The position numbers and the translations under genes are program-made. Shown piece by piece: positions 2,876 to 61,416 of a DNA stretch of 64,000 bases; position 1 is the stretch's first letter, and each line of letters starts with the position of its first letter. Where the stretch lies: IMG/VR virus record IMGVR_UViG_3300021962_000022. One strand, given 5' to 3'. The notes beneath the pieces were generated by a model that worked only from the letters and a program-made list of their open reading frames with translations, did not search any database and was not told the origin of the DNA. Source of the DNA: a virus. Its lineage: Duplodnaviria > Caudoviricetes.

Positions 2876-3910
2876 TTAAAATCCATTTGTTGAAGGATTA
2901 TAAAAAACTAAACCTGTCACATTTGTTGTTTTTGTTATGGTCGGCGATGAGTAACTAAATGTCATAACATCACCACCACCAATTTCACCAAATTGTATTC
3001 TTATTGGATAGTAATTTCCAGCAACTAATGAAAACGTAGCCGATACTTCCTGAACCCCATGAGCACCACCATTGTTTATATTTGAATTAGCGGTGGTAAA
3101 ACCTGATAATGCATTTGCACCAATCCAAAGATAAGAACCATCATCACTTGATAAGAAGAATGTATATGTTTCTGTTGTTGTTGCCTTAAAATACCCCAAC
3201 CATTGACAACTAAAATCAGACCCGTCATTACTTGATGGTTCAGTTATTGAAGTTGTTTGAACCGAGGTGGCAGGATTTGTACCAAAGGTCGTTGGGGTTG
3301 CAGTTGCGAAAAACGCCGGATTTTCGCTATGATAACCAGAATATGTTGTTTTATATAAACCAGCACTAAACGCACTTGTTGGAGTTGGAGTTGGTGTTAA
3401 TGTTGGGGTGATAGTTGGTGTTAATGTCGGTGTTATTGATGATGTTGGAGTGATAGTTGGTGTTATAGAAGGTGTTCTACTTGGTGTTAATGAAGGTGTG
3501 ACAGTTGGTGTTGGTGTAACTGTAGGTGTTAGTGAGGGAGTAACGGAACTTGTCGGTGTAATTGATGATGTCAACGACGGTGTGACCGACGAGGTAAGAG
3601 AAGGTGTTACCGAAGGTGTTCTACTTGGTGTTAATGAAGGTGTTATACTTGGTGTTGGTGAAGATAATACGGTAGACGGGGTTGTGGAACTTGTTGGTGT
3701 CGGTGAAGGTCCCGTTTCAATAACATATAAAGTACATGTACTACCAAAAGCCGGAAAAAACAATGAATATGTCCCATAAAAATAAGGTGCAACATAATCG
3801 TATGGTAAAACTTGTGTACCCAAATTAATAGTCCCACCCGTATCGGGATAGTATGTAATAACCGCCGATTGACCAGTATAATTTGTTGAGACTATTTTTA
3901 AAGTATCCAT
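2876..3910 (-). CDS. Pro/Thr/Ser-rich stalk protein with C-terminal PA14-like carbohydrate-binding domain
   Basis: About 110 aa of TPS/TPT repeats, then WLGYF..TYTFFLSSDDGSYLWIG..NNGGAHG..YYPIRIQFGE typical of PA14. Confidence 0.8.
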   Translation of the reverse strand: MDTLKIVSTNYTGQSAVITYYPDTGGTINLGTQVLPYDYVAPYFYGTYSLFFPAFGSTCTLYVIETGPSPTPTSSTTPSTVLSSPTPSITPSLTPSRTPSVTPSLTSSVTPSLTSSITPTSSVTPSLTPTVTPTPTVTPSLTPSRTPSITPTITPTSSITPTLTPTITPTLTPTPTPTSAFSAGLYKTTYSGYHSENPAFFATATPTTFGTNPATSVQTTSITEPSSNDGSDFSCQWLGYFKATTTETYTFFLSSDDGSYLWIGANALSGFTTANSNINNGGAHGVQEVSATFSLVAGNYYPIRIQFGEIGGGDVMTFSYSSPTITKTTNVTGLVFYNPSTNGF

Positions 3911-3942
3911 TTATTTAAAATATAATATTTTGTTTAGTATTT

Positions 3943-5313
3943 TTAAAGTCCTACCATGCTATCCACACAATCTTCAACACATTCAATTATATCGTAATTT
4001 GGTTTAATATCAACCAAATAATGATGTCTTACCCTTACGTAGTTTAATGGTTCTTGATAATATTGGACTCTTTTAAAATTAAAACAAGAGGTACCCATAT
4101 TATGAATTCCACCTGAATATTGAGTACCACCAGCCCATGATTGTATAAATGGTTGGTCACCTCTAGTTGATGGTATAACTTCTTCCCATCCTTTTAATTT
4201 ATAGATTGTTCTGCCGTTTAAATAAATTTTTAAAGTACCCAATCTTCTATTTCTTTCTAACGCCCATTTCTTATTTAATTCTTCCGCAGTTGTATAAATA
4301 GTTGTTTGTGTTGATGTTACTGCGGTGATAACAGTATCGGTATATGGAATAGTTTTTATTCCCGGTATTAAATCATTCCACCCACCATCATTTTCTAAAT
4401 TACAATCCGTATAATACTTATCTCGTTCAAAAGTAATTGTAACATTAAAATCTTTTGACGTACCACTAACACATAATACGGGTGTTTGACCCGATGAAGT
4501 ATAATATGATTCTGTATAACCACTATCGGTCACACAAACACCTGAATATCTAATTGCTCTCCATTGTATTCTACCATCATTTGTGAATGAAAATGATAGA
4601 TTATTATCTGCGTAATTTGATATTGAACTCTCATTTCTAACACCTAAATAATAAATCGTCCTTCCACTTGTCCAATTAGAACCATCTTTATTAAGTACCA
4701 AATCAATTGTCCAACCTTTTTCATTTCTTCTCTGTACTTTGTAAGAACAATTATCAGTTCCAGCACCATGATTTATTTGATATGCCCATGGTTTTGCGGT
4801 TGGAATTGGGTCTTGAGGACAACAATTATCACTGATAATTTCTGTGACACAAGGATATTTGGCACCAATCCCATTAAAATTTGCAACATTTAGAGAATTT
4901 GGATTGGATGCGGGGTCATTATAAATGTTCGCATTATGAACAAAATAATGTTTATAACCACTTCCATCGATGTATTCATAAACATCATTCTCTAAAATTA
5001 AATCTGAATTTTGTAGTTGGGTTGTAAATCCACTATAAGGTAAAACCCAAGACCAACCTGAAAATAATGAACCTGTTATATAAGAGGTTAAATTCACTTC
5101 AAGTAGGGATATAGTATCCCTTACACAATCAGTTCCGGTCATACCTGTTGTGTTAATAGTCAATCCTGTATATGATATACTATTATCCAAATCCAAAACC
5201 AAACTATCATAATCTAATTCAGTTTTAGAAATTTCGTAATCGTAATATTCCGAAGAATCGAGTTGTAAATCTAATTTACTCCCCCAAAATTTAAGTATGT
5301 TTTGACTATTCAT
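3943..5313 (-). CDS. Putative virion protein with concanavalin/LamG-like beta-sandwich
   Basis: 456 aa; GTLKIYLNGR and QSWAGG..F..VQYYQEPL resemble LamG folds; TATTTATA upstream. Confidence 0.55.
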   Translation of the reverse strand: MNSQNILKFWGSKLDLQLDSSEYYDYEISKTELDYDSLVLDLDNSISYTGLTINTTGMTGTDCVRDTISLLEVNLTSYITGSLFSGWSWVLPYSGFTTQLQNSDLILENDVYEYIDGSGYKHYFVHNANIYNDPASNPNSLNVANFNGIGAKYPCVTEIISDNCCPQDPIPTAKPWAYQINHGAGTDNCSYKVQRRNEKGWTIDLVLNKDGSNWTSGRTIYYLGVRNESSISNYADNNLSFSFTNDGRIQWRAIRYSGVCVTDSGYTESYYTSSGQTPVLCVSGTSKDFNVTITFERDKYYTDCNLENDGGWNDLIPGIKTIPYTDTVITAVTSTQTTIYTTAEELNKKWALERNRRLGTLKIYLNGRTIYKLKGWEEVIPSTRGDQPFIQSWAGGTQYSGGIHNMGTSCFNFKRVQYYQEPLNYVRVRHHYLVDIKPNYDIIECVEDCVDSMVGL

Positions 5314-50588: not shown

Positions 50589-50620
50589 CTTGTTTTTCCG
50601 AATACTTATTGTTATCTTTG
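50589..50620 (+). promoter_or_regulatory. Bacteroidota sigma70-type promoter of tRNA operon 1
   Basis: CTTG (50589-92), 20-nt spacer, TATCTTTG (50613-20). Confidence 0.8.
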
Positions 50621-50651
50621 TAAAAGATTTTAAAAATTAAATAAACTTTCG

Positions 50652-50741
50652 ATGATACGCTCAACACATACAATGTCGTTTACAATCTGTTCAAAATGGG
50701 CAGAGGTGGCTGATATTTGCATGTCCCGAGGTGTCTTGTGA
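50652..50741 (+). CDS. Candidate attenuator leader peptide 1 (MIRSTHTMSFTICSKWAEVADICMSRGVL)
   Basis: 29-codon ORF between promoter and terminator; contains the antiterminator segment 50724-50732. Confidence 0.55.
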   Translation: MIRSTHTMSFTICSKWAEVADICMSRGVL

Positions 50742-50769
50742 GTTGTTTAGTTTAAAACGATACTTTAAG

Positions 50770-50799
50770 AACCTCGGGAGAAATCTCGAGGTTTTTTTG
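50770..50799 (+). terminator. Attenuator terminator 1
   Basis: AACCTCGGGA-GAAA-TCTCGAGGTT plus T run. Confidence 0.9.
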
Positions 50800-50805
50800 T
50801 TTTAT

Positions 50806-50875
50806 GGGCCTGATGTCAACGGCAGACCGTCTGATTTGCAATCAGAACGATTGGGTTCGATTCCCACAGTGTCCA
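50806..50875 (+). tRNA. tRNA-Ala(TGC), imperfect acceptor/T stems
   Basis: TCTGA-TT TGC AA-TCAGA; G3:U70 present; TTCGATT loop. Confidence 0.7.
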
Positions 50876-50881
50876 CAAAGA

Positions 50882-50904
50882 TGTTCTTTGACATATTGGT
50901 TTAA
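50882..50904 (+). promoter_or_regulatory. boxA-like antitermination element
   Basis: TGTTCTTTGACATATTGGTTTAA, identical 23-mer at 53981-54003. Confidence 0.6.
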
Positions 50905-50907
50905 TTT

Positions 50908-50980
50908 GGTACCGTAGCTCAGTAGGTAGAGCACCAGACTGAAAATCTGGGTGTCACTGGTTCAAATCCAGTCGGTACCA
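50908..50980 (+). tRNA. tRNA-Phe(GAA)
   Basis: CCAGA-CT GAA AA-TCTGG; acceptor GGTACCG/CGGTACC. Confidence 0.95.
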
Positions 50981-50985
50981 CACTT

Positions 50986-51059
50986 GTCTTCGTAGCTCAG
51001 TTGGTTAGAGCACCTCACTTTTAATGAGGGAGTCACGCGTTCGAGTCGCGTCGGGGACA
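50986..51059 (+). tRNA. tRNA-Lys(TTT)
   Basis: CCTCA-CT TTT AA-TGAGG. Confidence 0.95.
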
Positions 51060-51063
51060 CAAA

Positions 51064-51191
51064 GGTTGATTGGGGAATGGTTATGTCTATAGTTCGAGAG
51101 TGAATACTGACTGATATAATCGGAGTTTGGAGGTATTCACCTAAGTAACGCCAATCGTAAAAGGAGATGTCCACTGAACCATCTTCTCCTT
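51064..51191 (+). ncRNA. Unassigned structured RNA A
   Basis: GATTGG/CCAATC, GTTAT/GTAAC, GTGAATAC/GTATTCAC, AGGAGATG/CATCTTCT. Confidence 0.5.
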
Positions 51192-51201
51192 TCCTTGACT
51201 T

Positions 51202-51274
51202 AGTTCCTTAGCTCAGTTGGTAGAGCATCTGCCTTACATGCAGAGGGTCGTTGGTTCGAATCCGACAGGAACTA
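51202..51274 (+). tRNA. tRNA-Val(TAC)
   Basis: TCTGC-CT TAC AT-GCAGA. Confidence 0.95.
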
Positions 51275-51282
51275 CATTATAC

Positions 51283-51353
51283 ACAGGTGTGGTGAAAGGG
51301 TATCATACCGGTCTCCAAAACCGTTGTTGGGAGTTCGAATCTCTCCACCTGTG
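51283..51353 (+). tRNA. tRNA-Trp(CCA)
   Basis: CGGT-CT CCA AA-ACCG; acceptor ACAGGTG/CACCTGT. Confidence 0.92.
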
Positions 51354-51428
51354 CAAATTATATGTAAAGACATATAAAATAACGGTACATAATAAAATTA
51401 TATCTAAAAACATATAAAACTAAAAACT

Positions 51429-51860
51429 ATGAATAATCAAATGGGAATCGAAGCAGCAAAAATTAAATTTGAGGCTGAGAAAATGAAACTAAAGGAGGAA
51501 AGAGAACAAAGGATTAAAGATTTTTGGGAAAACGGAATACCCAAATTAAATAATCCTGAAGACGTACCAACCCTTCCAAGAGTGAATGAAAAAGAATGGA
51601 AAGAGTATTATGTACCAAGATTGATTGATGCGGGTGCAATCCCCAAAAAAGATTTAATCCACGGACAAGTTTATATTGGTGACCATCGAAACACAGATGT
51701 TGCAAGATGGAATCAAGAAACAAATAAATTTGACCATATGAGATATAAATTTGGTTGGAGGAAAGATGACTGTAACCATTTTGAAGATGATGATGGGTTT
51801 GCGTTATTTGTTCCGATTAGATTAGGTACTGAAGATGATTGGAATGAAAGAATTAAATAA
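51429..51860 (+). CDS. Hypothetical protein within the tRNA array
   Basis: 143 aa, A-rich initiation context. Confidence 0.75.
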   Translation: MNNQMGIEAAKIKFEAEKMKLKEEREQRIKDFWENGIPKLNNPEDVPTLPRVNEKEWKEYYVPRLIDAGAIPKKDLIHGQVYIGDHRNTDVARWNQETNKFDHMRYKFGWRKDDCNHFEDDDGFALFVPIRLGTEDDWNERIK

Positions 51861-51865
51861 ATGAT

Positions 51866-51939
51866 ACTCTCGTAGTTCAATGGATTAGAACATTTCACTA
51901 CGGATGAAAGGGTTGGGAGTTCGAGTCTCTCCGAGAGTA
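51866..51939 (+). tRNA. tRNA-Arg(ACG)
   Basis: TTTCA-CT ACG GA-TGAAA. Confidence 0.93.
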
Positions 51940-51945
51940 CAATAA

Positions 51946-52015
51946 GGTCAGTTTGGTCATGGAGGCCGGTTAGTCTGCAAAACTAACGGAGTTGGTTCGA
52001 TTCCAACATTGACCT
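51946..52015 (+). tRNA. tRNA-Cys(GCA)
   Basis: TTAGT-CT GCA AA-ACTAA; U73 discriminator. Confidence 0.9.
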
Positions 52016-52071
52016 CAATATAAGGTCTGAACCTAATAGTGGGGGATTATTAGGTCTAGAACTTATAATAT

Positions 52072-52146
52072 GGTAGATATAGTTCAGTTGGTTAGAACGT
52101 CTGATTGTGGTTCAGAAGGTCGTCGGTTCGAATCCGATTATTTACC
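52072..52146 (+). tRNA. tRNA-His(GTG)
   Basis: TCTGA-TT GTG GT-TCAGA; G-1:C73. Confidence 0.93.
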
Positions 52147-52152
52147 CTTTAT

Positions 52153-52229
52153 TGGAATATAGCTCAATTGGTTAGAGCATTCGTCTGATACGCGAAAGGT
52201 TATAGGTTCGATTCCTATTATTCCAACCA
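52153..52229 (+). tRNA. tRNA-Ile(GAT), CCA encoded
   Basis: TTCGT-CT GAT AC-GCGAA. Confidence 0.95.
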
Positions 52230-52234
52230 AACAT

Positions 52235-52308
52235 TGCGGGGTGGACTGGAGAGGTTCCAGCTCAGTCTCATAAGCTGAATGACGTGGGTTCGATTCCCAC
52301 CCCCGCAA
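52235..52308 (+). tRNA. tRNA-Met(CAT), initiator-like 5' end
   Basis: TCAGT-CT CAT AA-GCTGA; starts TGCGGGGTGG but lacks the three G:C anticodon-stem pairs. Confidence 0.85.
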
Positions 52309-52388
52309 CTTTTTCATTGAATATTTTGAAATATGAAATTTCATGTTTATATTTTAATTGTTCGTTTGTTCTTTGAAATAAAAATATG

Positions 52389-52471
52389 GGTATAACTAGG
52401 GTCGAGCCAGATTTTGCCACGGTTATATCAAGGGTTGGAAGGACCAGAGCTGGCCGTGACTACTCCAACCC
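52389..52471 (+). ncRNA. Unassigned structured RNA B (two hairpins with complementary loops)
   Basis: GGTATAAC/GTTATATC and GGGTTGGA/TCCAACCC; loop segments GCCAG/CTGGC and GGTC/GACT; boxA-like site at 52367-79 upstream. Confidence 0.55.
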
Positions 52472-52477
52472 ACTATC

Positions 52478-52551
52478 GCCTCCTTAGCTCAGTTGGCCAG
52501 AGCGCCTCACTTGTAATGAGGATGTCGTTGGTTCGAATCCGACAGGAGGCT
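52478..52551 (+). tRNA. tRNA-Thr(TGT)
   Basis: CCTCA-CT TGT AA-TGAGG. Confidence 0.95.
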
Positions 52552-52560
52552 CTGCAGGGT

Positions 52561-52646
52561 TTTCGGTGTAAAGGGTGTCACAACCTACCTGAGCAAAACC
52601 TAACACATGTCCACTATGTGTTAGGGTAATGTGGATAAAACCGAAA
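52561..52646 (+). ncRNA. Unassigned structured RNA C (pseudoknot)
   Basis: TTTCGGT/ACCGAAA closing stem; CCTAACACAT/ATGTGTTAGG with loop GTCCAC pairing to GTGGAT at 52631-36. Confidence 0.55.
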
Positions 52647-52648
52647 TT

Positions 52649-52720
52649 GGTCTCATAGTTAAACGGCTATAATGCAGCCCTGTCACGGCTGAGTTCGGGG
52701 TTCGATTCCCCGTGGGACCG
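52649..52720 (+). tRNA. tRNA-Asp(GTC)
   Basis: CAGCC-CT GTC AC-GGCTG. Confidence 0.95.
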
Positions 52721-52721
52721 C

Positions 52722-53005
52722 AATGGGTAAGAGATACTCAGGAAGATTGGCTACATTCTTTAAAAAAGTAGTGGTGGTAAAAAAATCCTCGACCTTAATG
52801 AGGTATCGATTCGGATAAAACGGTAGCAAGACTCTGCACCGCCGACGTATAGAGTTGACAGGTTTTTATGTGGTAAGACACTAATGAGAAAGGCCCAATG
52901 ATGGAGGACACTTTTAAGCAATATGTTCAGAGAGCGTTGGGGGATATGGTTCTCGAAACAGTGAGAGAAACCCGTTAAAATCTACTTATTGTAATCTCAG
53001 ATAAG
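52722..53005 (+). ncRNA. Unassigned ~285-nt multi-helix RNA D
   Basis: AATGGGT/ACCCGTT long-range pair; CCCAAT/GTTGGG crossing GAGAGC/GTTCTC; several local hairpins; no ORF in the track. Confidence 0.5.
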
Positions 53006-53011
53006 GAAATT

Positions 53012-53097
53012 GGAGAGTTGGCAGAGCTGGTTGAACGCGGCGGTCTTGAAAACCGTTTTATCGAAAGGTAACGGGGGTTCGAATCCCTCACTCTCCG
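53012..53097 (+). tRNA. tRNA-Ser(TGA)
   Basis: GCGGT-CT TGA AA-ACCGT; long variable arm. Confidence 0.95.
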
Positions 53098-53105
53098 CAA
53101 ATTAT

Positions 53106-53180
53106 GGCCCTTTCGTCTATCGGTTAGGACAGGTCCCTTTCACGGACCAGAGACGGGTTCGATTCCCGTAGGGGCTACCA
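53106..53180 (+). tRNA. tRNA-Glu(TTC), CCA encoded
   Basis: GGTCC-CT TTC AC-GGACC. Confidence 0.95.
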
Positions 53181-53194
53181 AACAAAAAACCAAT

Positions 53195-53437
53195 ATGTTA
53201 GAGAAAATTTTAGAACAATACGAAGGTGAAGAAATCTTAATCGCGGATGGATTTGATAATGCTGTTATAGGTATTGACGAATCTTCAATGAGATTAATTT
53301 ATTCTGTTGAAAAGTGTATAGAAATCCTTATGAAACAAGGAATGGATATGACTGAAGCCGTTGAATACTTTGATTTTAATGTGTCAGGTTCATATGTTGG
53401 GGAGAAGACACCAATATGGTGTGACGATTTATTTTAA
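53195..53437 (+). CDS. Small acidic hypothetical protein
   Basis: 80 aa; ADGFDNAVIG..RLIYS..EAVEYFDFNV.GSYVGEKTP. Confidence 0.75.
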   Translation: MLEKILEQYEGEEILIADGFDNAVIGIDESSMRLIYSVEKCIEILMKQGMDMTEAVEYFDFNVSGSYVGEKTPIWCDDLF

Positions 53438-53550: not shown

Positions 53551-53715
53551 ATGCAAAAAGAACAAATACTAGGAATCGTAAGACACACATTAACATTTAT
53601 TGGTGGTGCATTAGTAGCAAAAGGATTAACAACAGACGTTTTATCTAATGAATTAATTGGTGCTGCAATGACATTAATTGGTGGTGTGTGGTCAATCATA
53701 TCAAAAAATAAATAA
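53551..53715 (+). CDS. Small two-TM protein, holin-like (not in the ORF track)
   Basis: MQKEQILGIVRHTLTFIGGALVAKGLTTDVLSNELIGAAMTLIGGVWSIISKNK, 54 aa, A-rich initiation region. Confidence 0.75.
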   Translation: MQKEQILGIVRHTLTFIGGALVAKGLTTDVLSNELIGAAMTLIGGVWSIISKNK

Positions 53716-53731
53716 AAAAATTTTAAAATTA

Positions 53732-53762
53732 CTTGTAAATAAAAAAACTTTTCGTATCTTTG
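53732..53762 (+). promoter_or_regulatory. Bacteroidota sigma70-type promoter of tRNA operon 2
   Basis: CTTG (53732-35), 19-nt spacer, TATCTTTG (53755-62). Confidence 0.8.
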
Positions 53763-53779
53763 TAATAGTTATTTAAGAA

Positions 53780-53884
53780 ATGATGAACTTGGTATACATA
53801 CAACAACCGTCAAACAATCCACTTAGTGGTAATGGGAGAGGTATATATTTATGTGGCCCAAGTTCGGAGTTAAACAAGTTGTAA
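53780..53884 (+). CDS. Candidate attenuator leader peptide 2 (MMNLVYIQQPSNNPLSGNGRGIYLCGPSSELNKL)
   Basis: 34-codon ORF between promoter and terminator; contains the antiterminator segment 53861-53871. Confidence 0.5.
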   Translation: MMNLVYIQQPSNNPLSGNGRGIYLCGPSSELNKL

Positions 53885-53910
53885 GAAAGTAAAAAACTTA
53901 TAGACAGGTG

Positions 53911-53942
53911 AAACCCGAACTCAAAAAAAGTTCGGGTTTTTT
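53911..53942 (+). terminator. Attenuator terminator 2
   Basis: AAACCCGAACT-CAAAAAA-AGTTCGGGTTT plus T run. Confidence 0.9.
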
Positions 53943-53980
53943 GTTTTTTAAGATTTTCGCTCTTATATTTTGATTATATT

Positions 53981-54009: not shown

Positions 54010-54094
54010 GCCGAGGTGATGGAATGGTAGACATGAGGGACTTAAAATCCCTTGGACAGTAATGTTCGTGTGGGTTCGACTCCCATCCTCGGTA
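54010..54094 (+). tRNA. tRNA-Leu(TAA)
   Basis: AGGGA-CT TAA AA-TCCCT; long variable arm. Confidence 0.95.
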
Positions 54095-54097
54095 CAA

Positions 54098-54300
54098 AAG
54101 AAACATCCTTACAGAAGGTGATAATGCTTCACTGAAAGGACTACTGACTTCCAAGTGGGTCGCAACCACAATCGGAAGGTACGACACGGCTCAGTAGACT
54201 CTGTAATGGACCCTGATCTATGGTGCACACATAACAGGTGATGGGGAACAAACCATCGGTAAAATCTAAACCTACGGTGAGCGTAGAAGGATTGTTTCTT
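54098..54300 (+). ncRNA. Unassigned ~200-nt multi-helix RNA E
   Basis: AAGAAACA-TCCT/AGGA-T-TGTTTCTT ends; TACAGA/TCTGTA; CTACTGA/TCAGTAG; CTTCC/GGAAG; CCTG/CAGG; GATGG/CCATC; CTACG/CGTAG. Confidence 0.65.
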
Positions 54301-54306
54301 TTTTTT

Positions 54307-54380
54307 GTCTCCGTAGCTCAGTTGGATAGAGCAACAGCCTTCTAAGCTGTGGGTCATTGGTTCGAATCCAATCGGGGATA
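54307..54380 (+). tRNA. tRNA-Arg(TCT)
   Basis: ACAGC-CT TCT AA-GCTGT. Confidence 0.95.
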
Positions 54381-54382
54381 CT

Positions 54383-54522
54383 AAGATAGTGGTCACTCTT
54401 ACAATGAAAGTCGACAAAGTAGTTGTAAGGTTCATAGTGTTCAGCACCCTCGGCCAGTGCACTGATAAAACTCAGAAGAAGCCGTTAAGATTGGAGCGAG
54501 ATGGGTACTCCATCACTATCTT
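54383..54522 (+). ncRNA. Unassigned ~140-nt structured RNA F
   Basis: AAGATAGTG/CACTATCTT ends; CTTACAA/TTGTAAG enclosing GAA...AGTA; TCAG-CAC/GTG-CA-CTGA; TGGAG/CTCCA. Confidence 0.6.
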
Positions 54523-54527
54523 TTTAT

Positions 54528-54600
<73 letters not shown>

Positions 54601-54605
54601 CACAA

Positions 54606-54677
54606 TCCTCGATAGCTCAGCGGTAGAGCACACGGCTGTTAACCGTGTGGTCGTTGGTTCGAATCCATCTCGGGGAG
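54606..54677 (+). tRNA. tRNA-Asn(GTT)
   Basis: CACGG-CT GTT AA-CCGTG. Confidence 0.93.
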
Positions 54678-54753
54678 CAAAAAAATCGCTGATAGAAACA
54701 TCGAAGGTGTACAATGCTAGCAACACCGTAGGTTAAGCGATATCCTACAATAG

Positions 54754-54834
54754 GCCTTGGTGGTGGAATGGTAGACACGCTAGTCTTAGGAACTAGTGGC
54801 GAAAGTCGTGTCGGTTCGAGTCCGACCTGAGGTA
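54754..54834 (+). tRNA. tRNA-Leu(TAG)
   Basis: CTAGT-CT TAG GA-ACTAG; long variable arm. Confidence 0.95.
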
Positions 54835-54840
54835 CAAAAT

Positions 54841-54923
54841 TGAAAGGTGGGTGAGTGGTTAAAACCGACAGACTGTAAATCTGTTCTCTTTGGAGTACGG
54901 CGGTTCGAATCCGTCCCTTTCAA
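54841..54923 (+). tRNA. tRNA-Tyr(GTA)
   Basis: ACAGA-CT GTA AA-TCTGT; long variable arm. Confidence 0.95.
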
Positions 54924-54936
54924 CAAAAATATTAAT

Positions 54937-55491
54937 ATGGGAACTAGAAGTAAAAAAATTTCAGAGATGTTATCAAACATAACACCTGAAATGAAAGAGA
55001 AATGGAAACAAGAAAGAGTTGAGAGTAAAAAGAAATTAACTCTTGAATATCAACTTGGTTACTATGTTGGTTTGGAGATTGTTCACAGATATCTACCAAC
55101 ACTTTCCACAGATATGTTACAATCTCGTACCGTGATTGAAGTTTCTGAAGAAGATACTTTAGAAAATGAAAGATTGGATACCGAATGGTATTCAACAACA
55201 ACACACGGTGGAGAATGGAATGGTGTTGATGAAAATGGTAATAAAGAAAAATGGGAGTTGTACCATCAACACAATAAGATGTTAGAGAGGAAATACCTAC
55301 CAAATCCATTAGAGTGTTACATGAGTTTATTAAATGTTCAAAACATGGATGAATTTAAAAAAGGTTTAAGGTTCGCTTTGTGGGATTGTGATATGTGTTC
55401 ATACAATATTGAACCTGAAAACATAAAAATTTACGATGATGAACAATCAATGTTTACAATCATCGAATTACAATTAGATTCAGTGGTGTAG
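54937..55491 (+). CDS. Hypothetical protein within the tRNA array
   Basis: In frame with ORF-track 54847; true start likely ATG 54937 (MGTRSKK) after tRNA-Tyr; stop lies inside the next tRNA. Confidence 0.75.
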   Translation: MGTRSKKISEMLSNITPEMKEKWKQERVESKKKLTLEYQLGYYVGLEIVHRYLPTLSTDMLQSRTVIEVSEEDTLENERLDTEWYSTTTHGGEWNGVDENGNKEKWELYHQHNKMLERKYLPNPLECYMSLLNVQNMDEFKKGLRFALWDCDMCSYNIEPENIKIYDDEQSMFTIIELQLDSVV

Positions 55492-55558
55492 CTCAATTGG
55501 TGAGAGCAGGACTCTTATACAGTCAAGGTTATGGGTTCAAATCCCGTCATCACTACCA
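55482..55558 (+). tRNA. tRNA-Ile(TAT), CCA encoded
   Basis: GACT-CT TAT AC-AGTC; acceptor AGTGGTG/CATCACT. Confidence 0.85.
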
Positions 55559-55581
55559 ATTATCGTCGATTTGAACGATAC

Positions 55582-55655
55582 GGTCCCTTAGCTCAGTTGG
55601 TTAGAGCAACTGACTCATAATCAGTAGGTCCACGGTTCAAGCCCGTGAGGGACCA
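55582..55655 (+). tRNA. tRNA(CAT), Ile2-like (lysidine type) or elongator Met
   Basis: ACTGA-CT CAT AA-TCAGT; body GGTCCCTTAGCTCAG..TTAGAGCA..GACTCATAATC resembles bacterial Ile2 tRNAs. Confidence 0.85.
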
Positions 55656-55682
55656 CGGAGATATTTATATAATAAAAAAACT

Positions 55683-56054
55683 ATGGGAATTGAATTAAAA
55701 AAGAAAAAACAACTTATTGAAAGATTAAATAAAAGATTATTATCTGAAGCTGAGATGGAATGCCCCAAATCAACAAAAGATACTGAACTTAACGACACCA
55801 ATAAGAAAAAAATCGAAAAGACACATCAGTACGGATTACCAACTGAAGAAGCAAAAGAAAAAAATCAAAATTGTGGAAATTGTGTTGCGTTTGATATTTC
55901 ATCAAGAATGAAAGATTGTATGAGTGATAATAGTGGTGAAATTGGTTATTGTTGGATGCACCACTTTATGTGTTCAGGAAAAAAATGGTGTGACACATGG
56001 GTTGAAGGTGGTCCAATCACAAAAGATTCTGTTTCATACGAAAAACAACAATAA
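55683..56054 (+). CDS. Cys-rich protein with HiPIP-like cysteine spacing
   Basis: NCGNCVAF...GYCWMHHFMC...WCDTW; TATTTATA upstream. Confidence 0.65.
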   Translation: MGIELKKKKQLIERLNKRLLSEAEMECPKSTKDTELNDTNKKKIEKTHQYGLPTEEAKEKNQNCGNCVAFDISSRMKDCMSDNSGEIGYCWMHHFMCSGKKWCDTWVEGGPITKDSVSYEKQQ

Positions 56055-56117
56055 ATGTAGTCGTACCCTTAACTCCAAAACTCACCTATGAGTCTCCGTT
56101 ATGGGAAGGCTACTCCC

Positions 56118-56190
56118 GCGGAAATAGCTCAGTTGGTAGAGCATCACCTTGCCAAGGTGAGGGTCGCGAGTTCGAGTCTCGTTTTCCGCT
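56118..56190 (+). tRNA. tRNA-Gly(GCC)
   Basis: TCACC-TT GCC AA-GGTGA; U73. Confidence 0.95.
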
Positions 56191-56259
56191 CTAAGTAAAC
56201 CTTAAAAAGGGCCCTTCCGTTGGTACGACAACGGCTTGTTGGGCCCGGGTTTACTTTTT

Positions 56260-56331
56260 GCGAATATCGTATAATGGTCATTACTCCTTCCTTCCAAGTA
56301 GGAGATGTCGGTTCGATTCCGGCTATTCGCT
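56260..56331 (+). tRNA. tRNA-Gly(TCC)
   Basis: CCTTC-CT TCC AA-GTAGG (one mismatch); U73. Confidence 0.9.
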
Positions 56332-56384
56332 CAATCATTATAGAGACTACTAAATCGGGTTAGTGAGAATCTATTTGTTATTAT

Positions 56385-56455
56385 TGTCCTGTGGTGTAAC
56401 GGCAGCACATCTGGTTTTGGTCCAGAGAATTGAGGTTCGAATCCTTGCGGGACAA
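56385..56455 (+). tRNA. tRNA-Gln(TTG)
   Basis: TCTGG-TT TTG GT-CCAGA. Confidence 0.92.
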
Positions 56456-56493
56456 CAAAATTTTTAAATCATAAAAAAACCAATATGTCGAGA

Positions 56494-56581
56494 GGAAAGT
56501 TACCCAAGTTGGTGAAGGGGACGGTTTGCTAAACCGTTAGGTCGAGTAATCGGCGCGAGGGTTCGAGCCCCTCACTTTCCG
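56494..56581 (+). tRNA. tRNA-Ser(GCT)
   Basis: ACGGT-TT GCT AA-ACCGT; long variable arm. Confidence 0.95.
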
Positions 56582-56612
56582 CAAAATACTTATAACTAGA
56601 ATAATATGTAAT

Positions 56613-59244: not shown

Positions 59245-59272
59245 ACCCACCCATCAGTTCTTTGAAATACTA

Positions 59273-60992: not shown

Positions 60993-61019
60993 TTATCTTT
61001 GTTTCGTTCTTTGATTTAT

Positions 61020-61416
61020 GGGGGTGTATGGAATTGATTGGCATTGATATTCTAAATGGGCACGTAGTCGGACTTCATCTACGACTTAAATCTACGGTGG
61101 AAAAATTCAAACGGCAACGTTTACAACAACATGGAAGTAGCAGGTCTTCTTGCAACTTCTAAAGTTGCTGCCTAATCGGTAGTAACTAACGGGTCGATGG
61201 ACACATAACCTTGGAACAGAAGTCCTTACAGTGTAATACCACTTAGAGTGTTAGGAGAATGGCCTGATTGTCTCTTTAAATTATAGTCAGGAACAGGTTT
61301 GTTGTTTTTCTGTATATGAAATCAAATATTTGTTGGTTGTGAATAACCAAATAAACGTGTAGTCCATTTATGGTATGATGAGCAAGACGCGGGTTCGAAA
61401 CCCGCCACCTCCACCA
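61020..61416 (+). ncRNA. ssrA: tmRNA
   Basis: Acceptor GGGGGTG/CACCTCC with G3:U70 and ACCA end, T arm GCGGG-TTCGAAA-CCCGC, internal tag frame 61113-61175 (GNVYNNMEVAGLLATSKVAA*); TATCTTTG box at 60994-61001. Confidence 0.93.

Follow-up and report, generated by a model that had tools for sequence, protein, structure and literature searches.

A probable multivalent leader-peptide attenuator precedes a tRNA array in a large uncultured phage

The window, that is the whole stretch of 64,000 nucleotides analysed here, comes from a large uncultured phage record of IMG/VR, the completeness of which is 38% according to CheckV. Positions 1-63083 of the window correspond to G000:C1:52782-115864. ARAGORN identified 25 tRNA genes in the window, to which a tmRNA gene and a weak tRNA-Ala(UGC), seen with Rfam only, have to be added. 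Two tRNA arrays are found on the same strand, array 1 at 50806-53180 and array 2 downstream of it. They are separated by two small protein genes followed by the leader-2 region, which is the subject of this study (Table 1). Promoter boxes of the TTG...TAnnTTTG type and a boxA match point to a Bacteroidota host. The stretch is present in DNA runs of freshwater, estuary and marine metagenomes. No close relative was found among deposited phages, where matches occurred at the tRNA level only. When the window was searched with Rfam at gathering thresholds, tRNA and tmRNA were the only families detected, with no T-box or other known leader family.

A 54-residue hydrophobic ORF (53551-53715) lies between an 80-residue gene and leader 2. 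It is missing from relative G001, in which leader 2 comes immediately after the 80-residue gene, and is kept in relative G002 together with one more inserted gene. Within the arrays, some inter-tRNA spacers are long and GC-richer (e.g. 54096-54306 and 52722-53011). Metatranscriptome depth peaks in bins 54226-54432 and 56089-56295, to which tRNAs from other organisms may contribute. The spacers, whose role is unknown, could form structured RNAs or represent intermediates of processing. In relative G004 (L030, about 2990-4000), an insertion of approximately 1 kb appears to split tRNA-Leu(UAA) in the anticodon loop; it encodes an HNH-type ORF, and ARAGORN misses this tRNA. The arrangement recalls the group I introns of tRNA-Leu(UAA).

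Table 1. Features of the leader-2 region and array 2, with leader 1 (positions in the window)
Feature	Position	Strand	Description
Leader 1	50589-50805	+	Promoter, 29-codon ORF 50652-50741, terminator 50767-96; before array 1
Promoter P1, Bacteroidota type	53733-53762	+	-33 TTG 53733-35, 19 nt, -7 TATCTTTG 53755-62
Leader-2 ORF MMNLVYIQQPSNNPLSGNGRGIYLCGPSSELNKL	53780-53884	+	34 codons, ATG 53780, TAA 53882-84
Segment 1 (codons 2-5)	53784-53792	+	Pairs with 53858-66 in the free-RNA MFE fold
Segment 2 (codons 27-31)	53858-53871	+	53858-66 pairs with segment 1; 53860-71 pairs with terminator 5' arm 53912-21
Intrinsic terminator	53910-53949	+	12-bp stem 53910-21 / 53929-40, 7-nt loop CAAAAAA, T-tract
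Candidate promoter P2	53940-53971	+	-33 TTTG 53940-43, 20 nt, -7 TATATTTT 53964-71
boxA-type element GTTCTTTGACATATTGGTTTAA	53982-54003	+	22 nt, identical to the copy at 50883-50904
tRNA array 2	54010-56582	+	12 genes (ARAGORN, Rfam)

An earlier note, made from the letters alone, had read the region as a promoter, a 34-codon ORF, a terminator, a boxA and a tRNA-Leu. This anatomy is now established, all five elements being found within 1-2 nt of the positions claimed, with tRNA-Leu at 54010. The terminator, claimed at 53911-42, is indeed present, and its stem was measured at the borders given in Table 1; the hairpin contains GC. The start site of P1 is inferred from the sequence at about 53768-71, and the ORF begins approximately 10 nt past it. 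The -7 octamer and the spacing of P1 are the same as in leader 1 (octamer at 50613-20) and are conserved in relatives. Array 2 encodes Leu-UAA, Arg-UCU, Pro-UGG, Asn-GUU, Leu-UAG, Tyr-GUA, Ile-UAU, Met-CAU, Gly-GCC, Gly-UCC, Gln-UUG and Ser-GCU. The distance from stop codon to terminator stem, which the note had put at 26 nt in leader 2 and 28 nt in leader 1, was measured as 25-26 nt and 25 nt, respectively. As was also claimed, ACATACAA occurs in both leaders (50666-73 and 53796-803) and the leaders are otherwise unrelated in sequence: local alignment of the ORF-to-terminator stretches gave no better score than shuffled sequences (P 0.06). Homology of the two leaders at the DNA level, for which ACATACAA and a second apparent block, AATGGG.AGAGGT, could have been invoked, was rejected on the same ground. 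Leaders 1 and 2 have only the promoter and boxA in common.

The codon content of the leader-2 ORF was then compared with the array. Codons were assigned to an array when its tRNAs can read them with standard wobble. Array 2 reads 26 of the 32 non-Met codons of leader 2 (binomial P 2.8e-6), whereas such codons make up 40% of the window's long ORFs. None of the 11 non-Met species of array 2 is left unsampled (P 4.8e-3 with random ORFs). The array-2 codon score is 0.81, the 197 ATG-ORFs of 25-45 codons in the window giving 0.43 ± 0.11. Leader 2 ranks first among these ORFs for array-2 codons, in keeping with the argument of the earlier note for more than chance. Codons 1-22, upstream of the antiterminator described below, are sufficient to cover all 12 array-2 species. 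Six codons are foreign to the array (V5, S11, C25, S29, E30 and K33), and four of them are located in codons 25-33, at or past the antiterminator. At the isoacceptor level, leader 2 carries Arg AGA, Ile AUA (twice) and Ser AGU (twice).

Leader 1 served as an internal control. Array 1 reads 23 of its 26 codons and all 13 species are sampled (P 8.5e-5). Among the 197 ATG-ORFs, leader 1 ranks first for its own array. Its isoacceptor codons are Arg CGC and CGA, Ile AUC and AUU, and four UCN Ser codons. The codon matching is therefore demonstrated for both leaders of the window. The weak tRNA-Ala(UGC) mentioned above (50806-50875; Rfam score of 31.8 bits, missed by ARAGORN) is located between the leader-1 terminator and boxA, and brings the phage set to 20 amino acids. 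There is no room for a promoter before this tRNA, which is therefore reachable only via the leader-1 terminator.

Next, the pairing potential of the leader RNA was examined. The earlier note had proposed that AGTTCGGAGTT (53861-71), at the end of the ORF, faces AACCCGAACT (53912-21) in the terminator 5' arm, and RNAduplex selected precisely this duplex. The energy of the ORF-to-terminator stretch with the 5' arm was -12.1 kcal/mol, as compared to -6.4 ± 1.9 kcal/mol for 300 shuffles (z -3.0, p 0.007), which demonstrates the complementarity. The antiterminator (53860-71) begins 22 nt and ends 11 nt before the stop codon. In the MFE fold of the free RNA, codons 2-5 pair with codons 27-29 and the terminator is formed (z -3.4). 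When the 3' arm was omitted, mimicking the co-transcriptional order, codons 27-31 paired with the 5' arm (-16.9 kcal/mol). With a ribosome footprint masked at codons 8 to 34, the terminator was kept in the equilibrium MFE fold except at codon 24. Overall, the 12-bp terminator outcompetes the 7+3-bp antiterminator at nearly all modelled ribosome positions. The switch is thus not demonstrated on thermodynamic grounds alone, and the decision must be kinetic. In the trp attenuator, the terminator is likewise favoured at equilibrium according to published energies.

Ten distinct members of the leader-2 family were collected. The locus search used a degenerate DNA pattern, the peptide being too short for this purpose. 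The whole unit is conserved in these 10 relatives, as the following comparisons demonstrate. The reading frame is kept in 10 out of 10, indels being in-frame and of 3 nt; one lineage shows a one-codon deletion in the ORF and two others have different ORF ends. In 9 of the 10 members, codons 1-22 include at least one codon for each of the 12 species. The peptide is well conserved, and its core NNPLSGNGRGIYLC is nearly invariant, many third positions included. Variable sites are distributed 11/9/16 over the three codon positions, which corresponds to a modest third-position excess. The predicted helix between segments 1 and 2 (53784-92/53858-66) is paired in 92.5% of cells in nine distinct relatives, with one compensatory UA>AU change and weak covariation. 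Corresponding values are 94% for the antiterminator and 93.5% for the terminator stem. As paired columns hardly vary, within-family covariation is uninformative for all three helices. Co-variation of leader and array was not found among close relatives, the arrays of which are almost identical. Moreover, the leader does not follow the array in two cases: it is nearly unchanged in G002, where ARAGORN does not find Ile-UAU and Gly-GCC of array 2, and in G005, where it finds only four array-2 tRNAs.

In order to extend the comparison, the 22-mer box, and later a 16-mer version of it, was used as query, and many viral contigs were retrieved. In 29 contigs of the 16-mer search, a tRNA lies no more than 80 nt after the box. 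Most such contigs share one layout in spite of quite different sequences: a Bacteroidota-type promoter, an ORF of 24-41 codons, an intrinsic terminator, in some cases a tRNA, then boxA and the array. For instance, MRTTGTTYQPKQYTQGGKPSVTGVSYQVGSEEII precedes an array of Pro Pro Gln Tyr Thr Gly Gly Lys Lys Lys, and MTRNSNMNIINLYNIDLYLDMDDGFVLLR one of Tyr Leu Leu Met Leu Asp Leu Asp Arg Arg. The terminator stands mostly 20-34 nt past the ORF stop in this wider set. The comparison set comprised 25 non-redundant leaders from other uncultured phage contigs. In this set, own-array tRNAs read a fraction of 0.523 of the leader codons, as compared to 0.361 after permutation (z 8.8; n=25), and the fraction of array species sampled by the own leader was 0.929, as compared to 0.678 (z 6.5; n=25). 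In both tests, 0 of 200,000 permutations reached the observed value. The match extends to isoacceptors, with 70 of 106 split-box codons fitting the array and 55 expected (z 3.0). Complementarity between the 3' part of the ORF and the terminator 5' arm is also a general feature (mean z -2.8; z < -2 in 17 of the 25 leaders). The antiterminator partner is positioned from about -25 to +10 with respect to the stop codon, its end having a median of 9 nt before the stop (n=25). No peptide motif is common to leaders of different families.

Six of these 25 leaders have no more than 20 nt between terminator and boxA, without a -7 box. In a seventh, L152, the 20 nt separating the two hold a box without a spaced -33 element. 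A tRNA directly follows the terminator in 5 of the 25 leaders. A -7 box is observed between terminator and boxA in only about 6 of the 25 families. Therefore, in families having neither the room nor a -7 box for a promoter, or having a tRNA directly after the terminator, the array can be reached only through the terminator. Passage through the terminator is taken to be the general case among the 25 families.

Concerning boxA, the 17-mer GTTCTTTGACATNTTGG recurs in many Bacteroidota genomes and, in the two rrn operons examined (Pedobacter and Flavihumibacter), sits between the last spacer tRNA and the 23S gene. Judged by its sequence, the phage box is the boxA of the Bacteroidota rrn 16S-23S spacer. 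An assignment as a 16S leader box was rejected, since none of the 81 genomic copies has a 16S 5' end in the 600 nt downstream of it. The box also precedes tRNA arrays in many other phage contigs. In E. coli, rrn antitermination via boxA and NusB/S10 is established. By analogy, we infer that the phage boxA would keep the polymerase processive through long untranslated RNA operons, in the absence of NusB/S10 binding data. Related modules were noticed elsewhere in the window. Directly before the tmRNA gene (61020-61416), a -7 box TATCTTTG (60994-61001) is followed by a boxA-like GTTCTTTGATTT (61006-17), an order matching that of the candidate P2 module, -7 box then boxA. Inside array 1 (52340-52380), the gap between tRNA-Met and tRNA-Thr contains a TATATTTT box and a boxA-like GTTCTTTGAAAT (52368-79); this internal box may be a promoter for the distal Thr, Asp, Ser and Glu tRNAs. 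Another boxA-like GTTCTTTGAAAT is present at 59257-59268 in a neighbouring RNA operon.

The earlier note had cautioned that a box at 53975-82 might act as a bypass promoter. The caveat was justified, and the TATATTTG box is present at this place, but a more likely -7 element is TATATTTT of P2, 53964-71. The -33 TTTG of P2 lies in the terminator tail. P2 recurs at this position, with a spacing of 19-20 nt, in 9 of the 10 family members, six of which carry an exact TATCTTTG or TATATTTG as their -7 box. The activity of P2 is inferred; it probably gives array 2 a basal level of expression. With a Bacteroidota-type promoter, conserved in position, between terminator and boxA, array 2 need not rely on read-through, and the switch thus probably modulates array 2 rather than being its sole gate.

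Parts of the stretch were found in six metatranscriptome runs. Contigs of a close strain, obtained from three studies, begin at 53778, 53788, 53826 and 53826, and all cross the terminator and boxA into tRNA-Leu. The one starting at 53778 is 562 nt long and extends to 54340, inside tRNA-Arg. At 53650-53729, no depth was observed in at least three of the four runs mapped on leader 2. As for the neighbouring protein genes, 53191-53397 had no depth in any of four runs mapped on this part, and the region up to 53604 had zero depth in three and slight depth in the fourth. The absence of depth upstream of leader 2 indicates that the signal is RNA rather than contaminating DNA. These contigs demonstrate only that transcripts run from the leader region across the terminator; they give neither ends nor amounts. 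On the leader-1 side, a 166-nt contig (run X18) covers 50647-50799, from the ORF start to the terminator end. A terminated leader transcript would look like this contig, which has the size expected of it.

Codon match, complementarity of ORF end and terminator arm, frame maintenance in relatives, boxA identity and RNA contigs bear out the reading of leader 2 as an attenuator put forward in the earlier note. We consider it likely, in the absence of any experiment, that leader 2 is a multivalent leader-peptide transcription attenuator sensing the decoding of the codons that its array reads. Translation of the ORF is inferred, and so is a read-through that depends on stalling, for which contigs running across the terminator are indirect evidence only. 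In the proposed mechanism, transcripts from P1 would carry the 34-codon ORF, codons 1-22 of which would test all 12 array-2 species. If translation is smooth, the ribosome reaching the stop codon (53882) would cover segment 2, the terminator (hairpin 53910-40) would form and transcription would end. If the ribosome is held up at any codon that is poorly decoded, within the first two thirds of the ORF, segment 2 would stay free. Its pairing with the 5' arm (53912-21) would then precede the synthesis of the 3' arm, so that RNA polymerase would read on. Without translation, segment 1 would sequester segment 2 and the terminator would form; the hairpin of segments 1 and 2 would be a protector or pause hairpin. 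A limit of this model is that segment 1, at codons 2-5, is not physically covered by ribosomes stalled after about codon 10. The read-through RNA would bear boxA (53982) and, by the rrn analogy, could recruit NusB/S10, a step that is likewise inferred, making the polymerase processive over the 2.6-kb untranslated array. The net effect would be a negative feedback, the tRNA set being made when the set itself or its host equivalents are short. This attenuator output would add to the basal P2 level.

Other explanations have to be weighed. The ORF might be an independent micro-protein gene, or the leader a terminated small transcript, with array 2 expressed from P2 (53940-71) and the hairpin acting as an insulator. 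The consensus spacing of P2 and its conserved position in 9 of 10 family members fit this idea, as do the good conservation of the peptide and the recurrence of '-7 box then boxA' directly before the tmRNA and inside array 1. However, it leaves unexplained the match between codons and array in leader 2, leader 1 and 25 other families, as well as the fixed position of the complementarity between ORF 3' end and terminator arm. In many homologous layouts a second promoter would not fit, and the RNA contigs, which begin at the leader, extend past the terminator. We therefore hold this explanation to be improbable. Simple chance, i.e. a spurious ORF in an AT-rich spacer followed by the ordinary terminator of the preceding gene, can hardly be maintained. 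Short ORFs and promoter-like boxes are certainly common in DNA of 32% GC, and a promoter scan yields no more sites than shuffles, but neither the first rank of the ORF among 197 nor the permutation z values of 8.8 and 6.5 are expected from chance. Nor are the conservation of the whole unit in 10 relatives and the presence of a Bacteroidota-type promoter between the upstream gene and the ORF.

A translation-dependent switch could also respond to another signal than tRNA supply, such as amino-acid pools, ribosome availability or a small molecule causing nascent-peptide arrest. Charged tRNA, which classical attenuators sense, also reflects amino-acid supply, and the near invariance of the core NNPLSGNGRGIYLC, even at many third positions, also speaks for such a signal. 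Yet invariant third positions are also expected from the fit of codons to one tRNA and from RNA folding. The leaders of different families share no peptide motif. In addition, amino-acid sensing does not predict the isoacceptor-level match (Arg AGA vs CGN, Ser AGY vs UCN, Ile AUA vs AUY; z 3.0). A signal other than tRNA supply consequently appears unlikely, and sensing of the decoding of array-2 codons remains the preferred reading of leader 2.

On a more tentative level, such checklist leaders may be both an inducible counter-defence and a supply sensor, the array being switched on when any matching isoacceptor is limiting and off by its own products. This extension is possible, but we would not rely on it. 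Shortage could be caused by host anticodon nucleases, by phage shutoff of host tRNA synthesis or by a mismatch in codon usage. If this counter-defence reading is true, a ribosome-measured circuit of tRNA homeostasis is widespread in phages of Bacteroidota.

The purpose of the tRNA sets of large phages and the control of their expression are an open question. Current proposals include compensation of codon usage and a substitution for host tRNAs lost to degradation or to cleavage by defence nucleases. If leader 2 works as an attenuator, tRNAs are made on demand in one large phage group, with translation speed as the signal. Attenuation of tRNA genes by a leader peptide would then be seen for the first time, and so would a sensor whose input is the regulated product; a full-text literature search for leader-peptide control of tRNA genes found none. 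It would also constitute a natural multi-input translational sensor, testing 12 species in one 34-codon ORF. The simple sequence rule involved would allow regulatory units to be predicted among the tRNAs of uncultured phages.

Among known systems, the closest are the enterobacterial attenuators, i.e. the multivalent leaders of ilvGMEDA, ilvBN and thr, and also trpL, hisL, pheL and leuL. Like them, leader 2 has a promoter-proximal short ORF with codons tied to the regulated product, and exclusive 1:2, 2:3 and 3:4 pairings, predicted in our case, with an intrinsic terminator. The antiterminator likewise overlaps the last codons, where it would be masked by a ribosome at the stop, and, as in the multivalent leaders, several different codons would be sensed together. 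Four attenuator traits are present in leader 2: a short ORF preceding the first structural gene, its enrichment in codons reporting on the regulated product, an intrinsic terminator ahead of the structural genes, and an antiterminator pairing incompatible with the terminator. The classical trait of controlling amino-acid biosynthetic or synthetase genes is lacking, since leader 2 would control 12 tRNAs. In contrast to the enterobacterial leaders, it has no run of a single codon but a one-of-each checklist of 12 species, and its product, tRNA, is what the sensor reads. Leader 2 also differs in being phage-borne, followed by boxA and provided with a candidate second promoter behind the terminator. 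The E. coli pheST operon, with its pheM leader, is another case in which attenuation acts on a component of the translation apparatus; there, a synthetase is controlled via the codons of one amino acid, without tRNA genes and without a checklist. T-box riboswitches likewise choose between terminator and antiterminator according to the state of a specific tRNA, but their ligand is uncharged tRNA itself, no translation is involved, and the genes they control are synthetase or amino-acid genes. Finally, the phage box shares with the boxA of the rrn NusB/S10 system the same 17-mer and a location at the head of long untranslated RNA operons, whereas the phage copies head tRNA arrays, a tmRNA gene and another RNA array.
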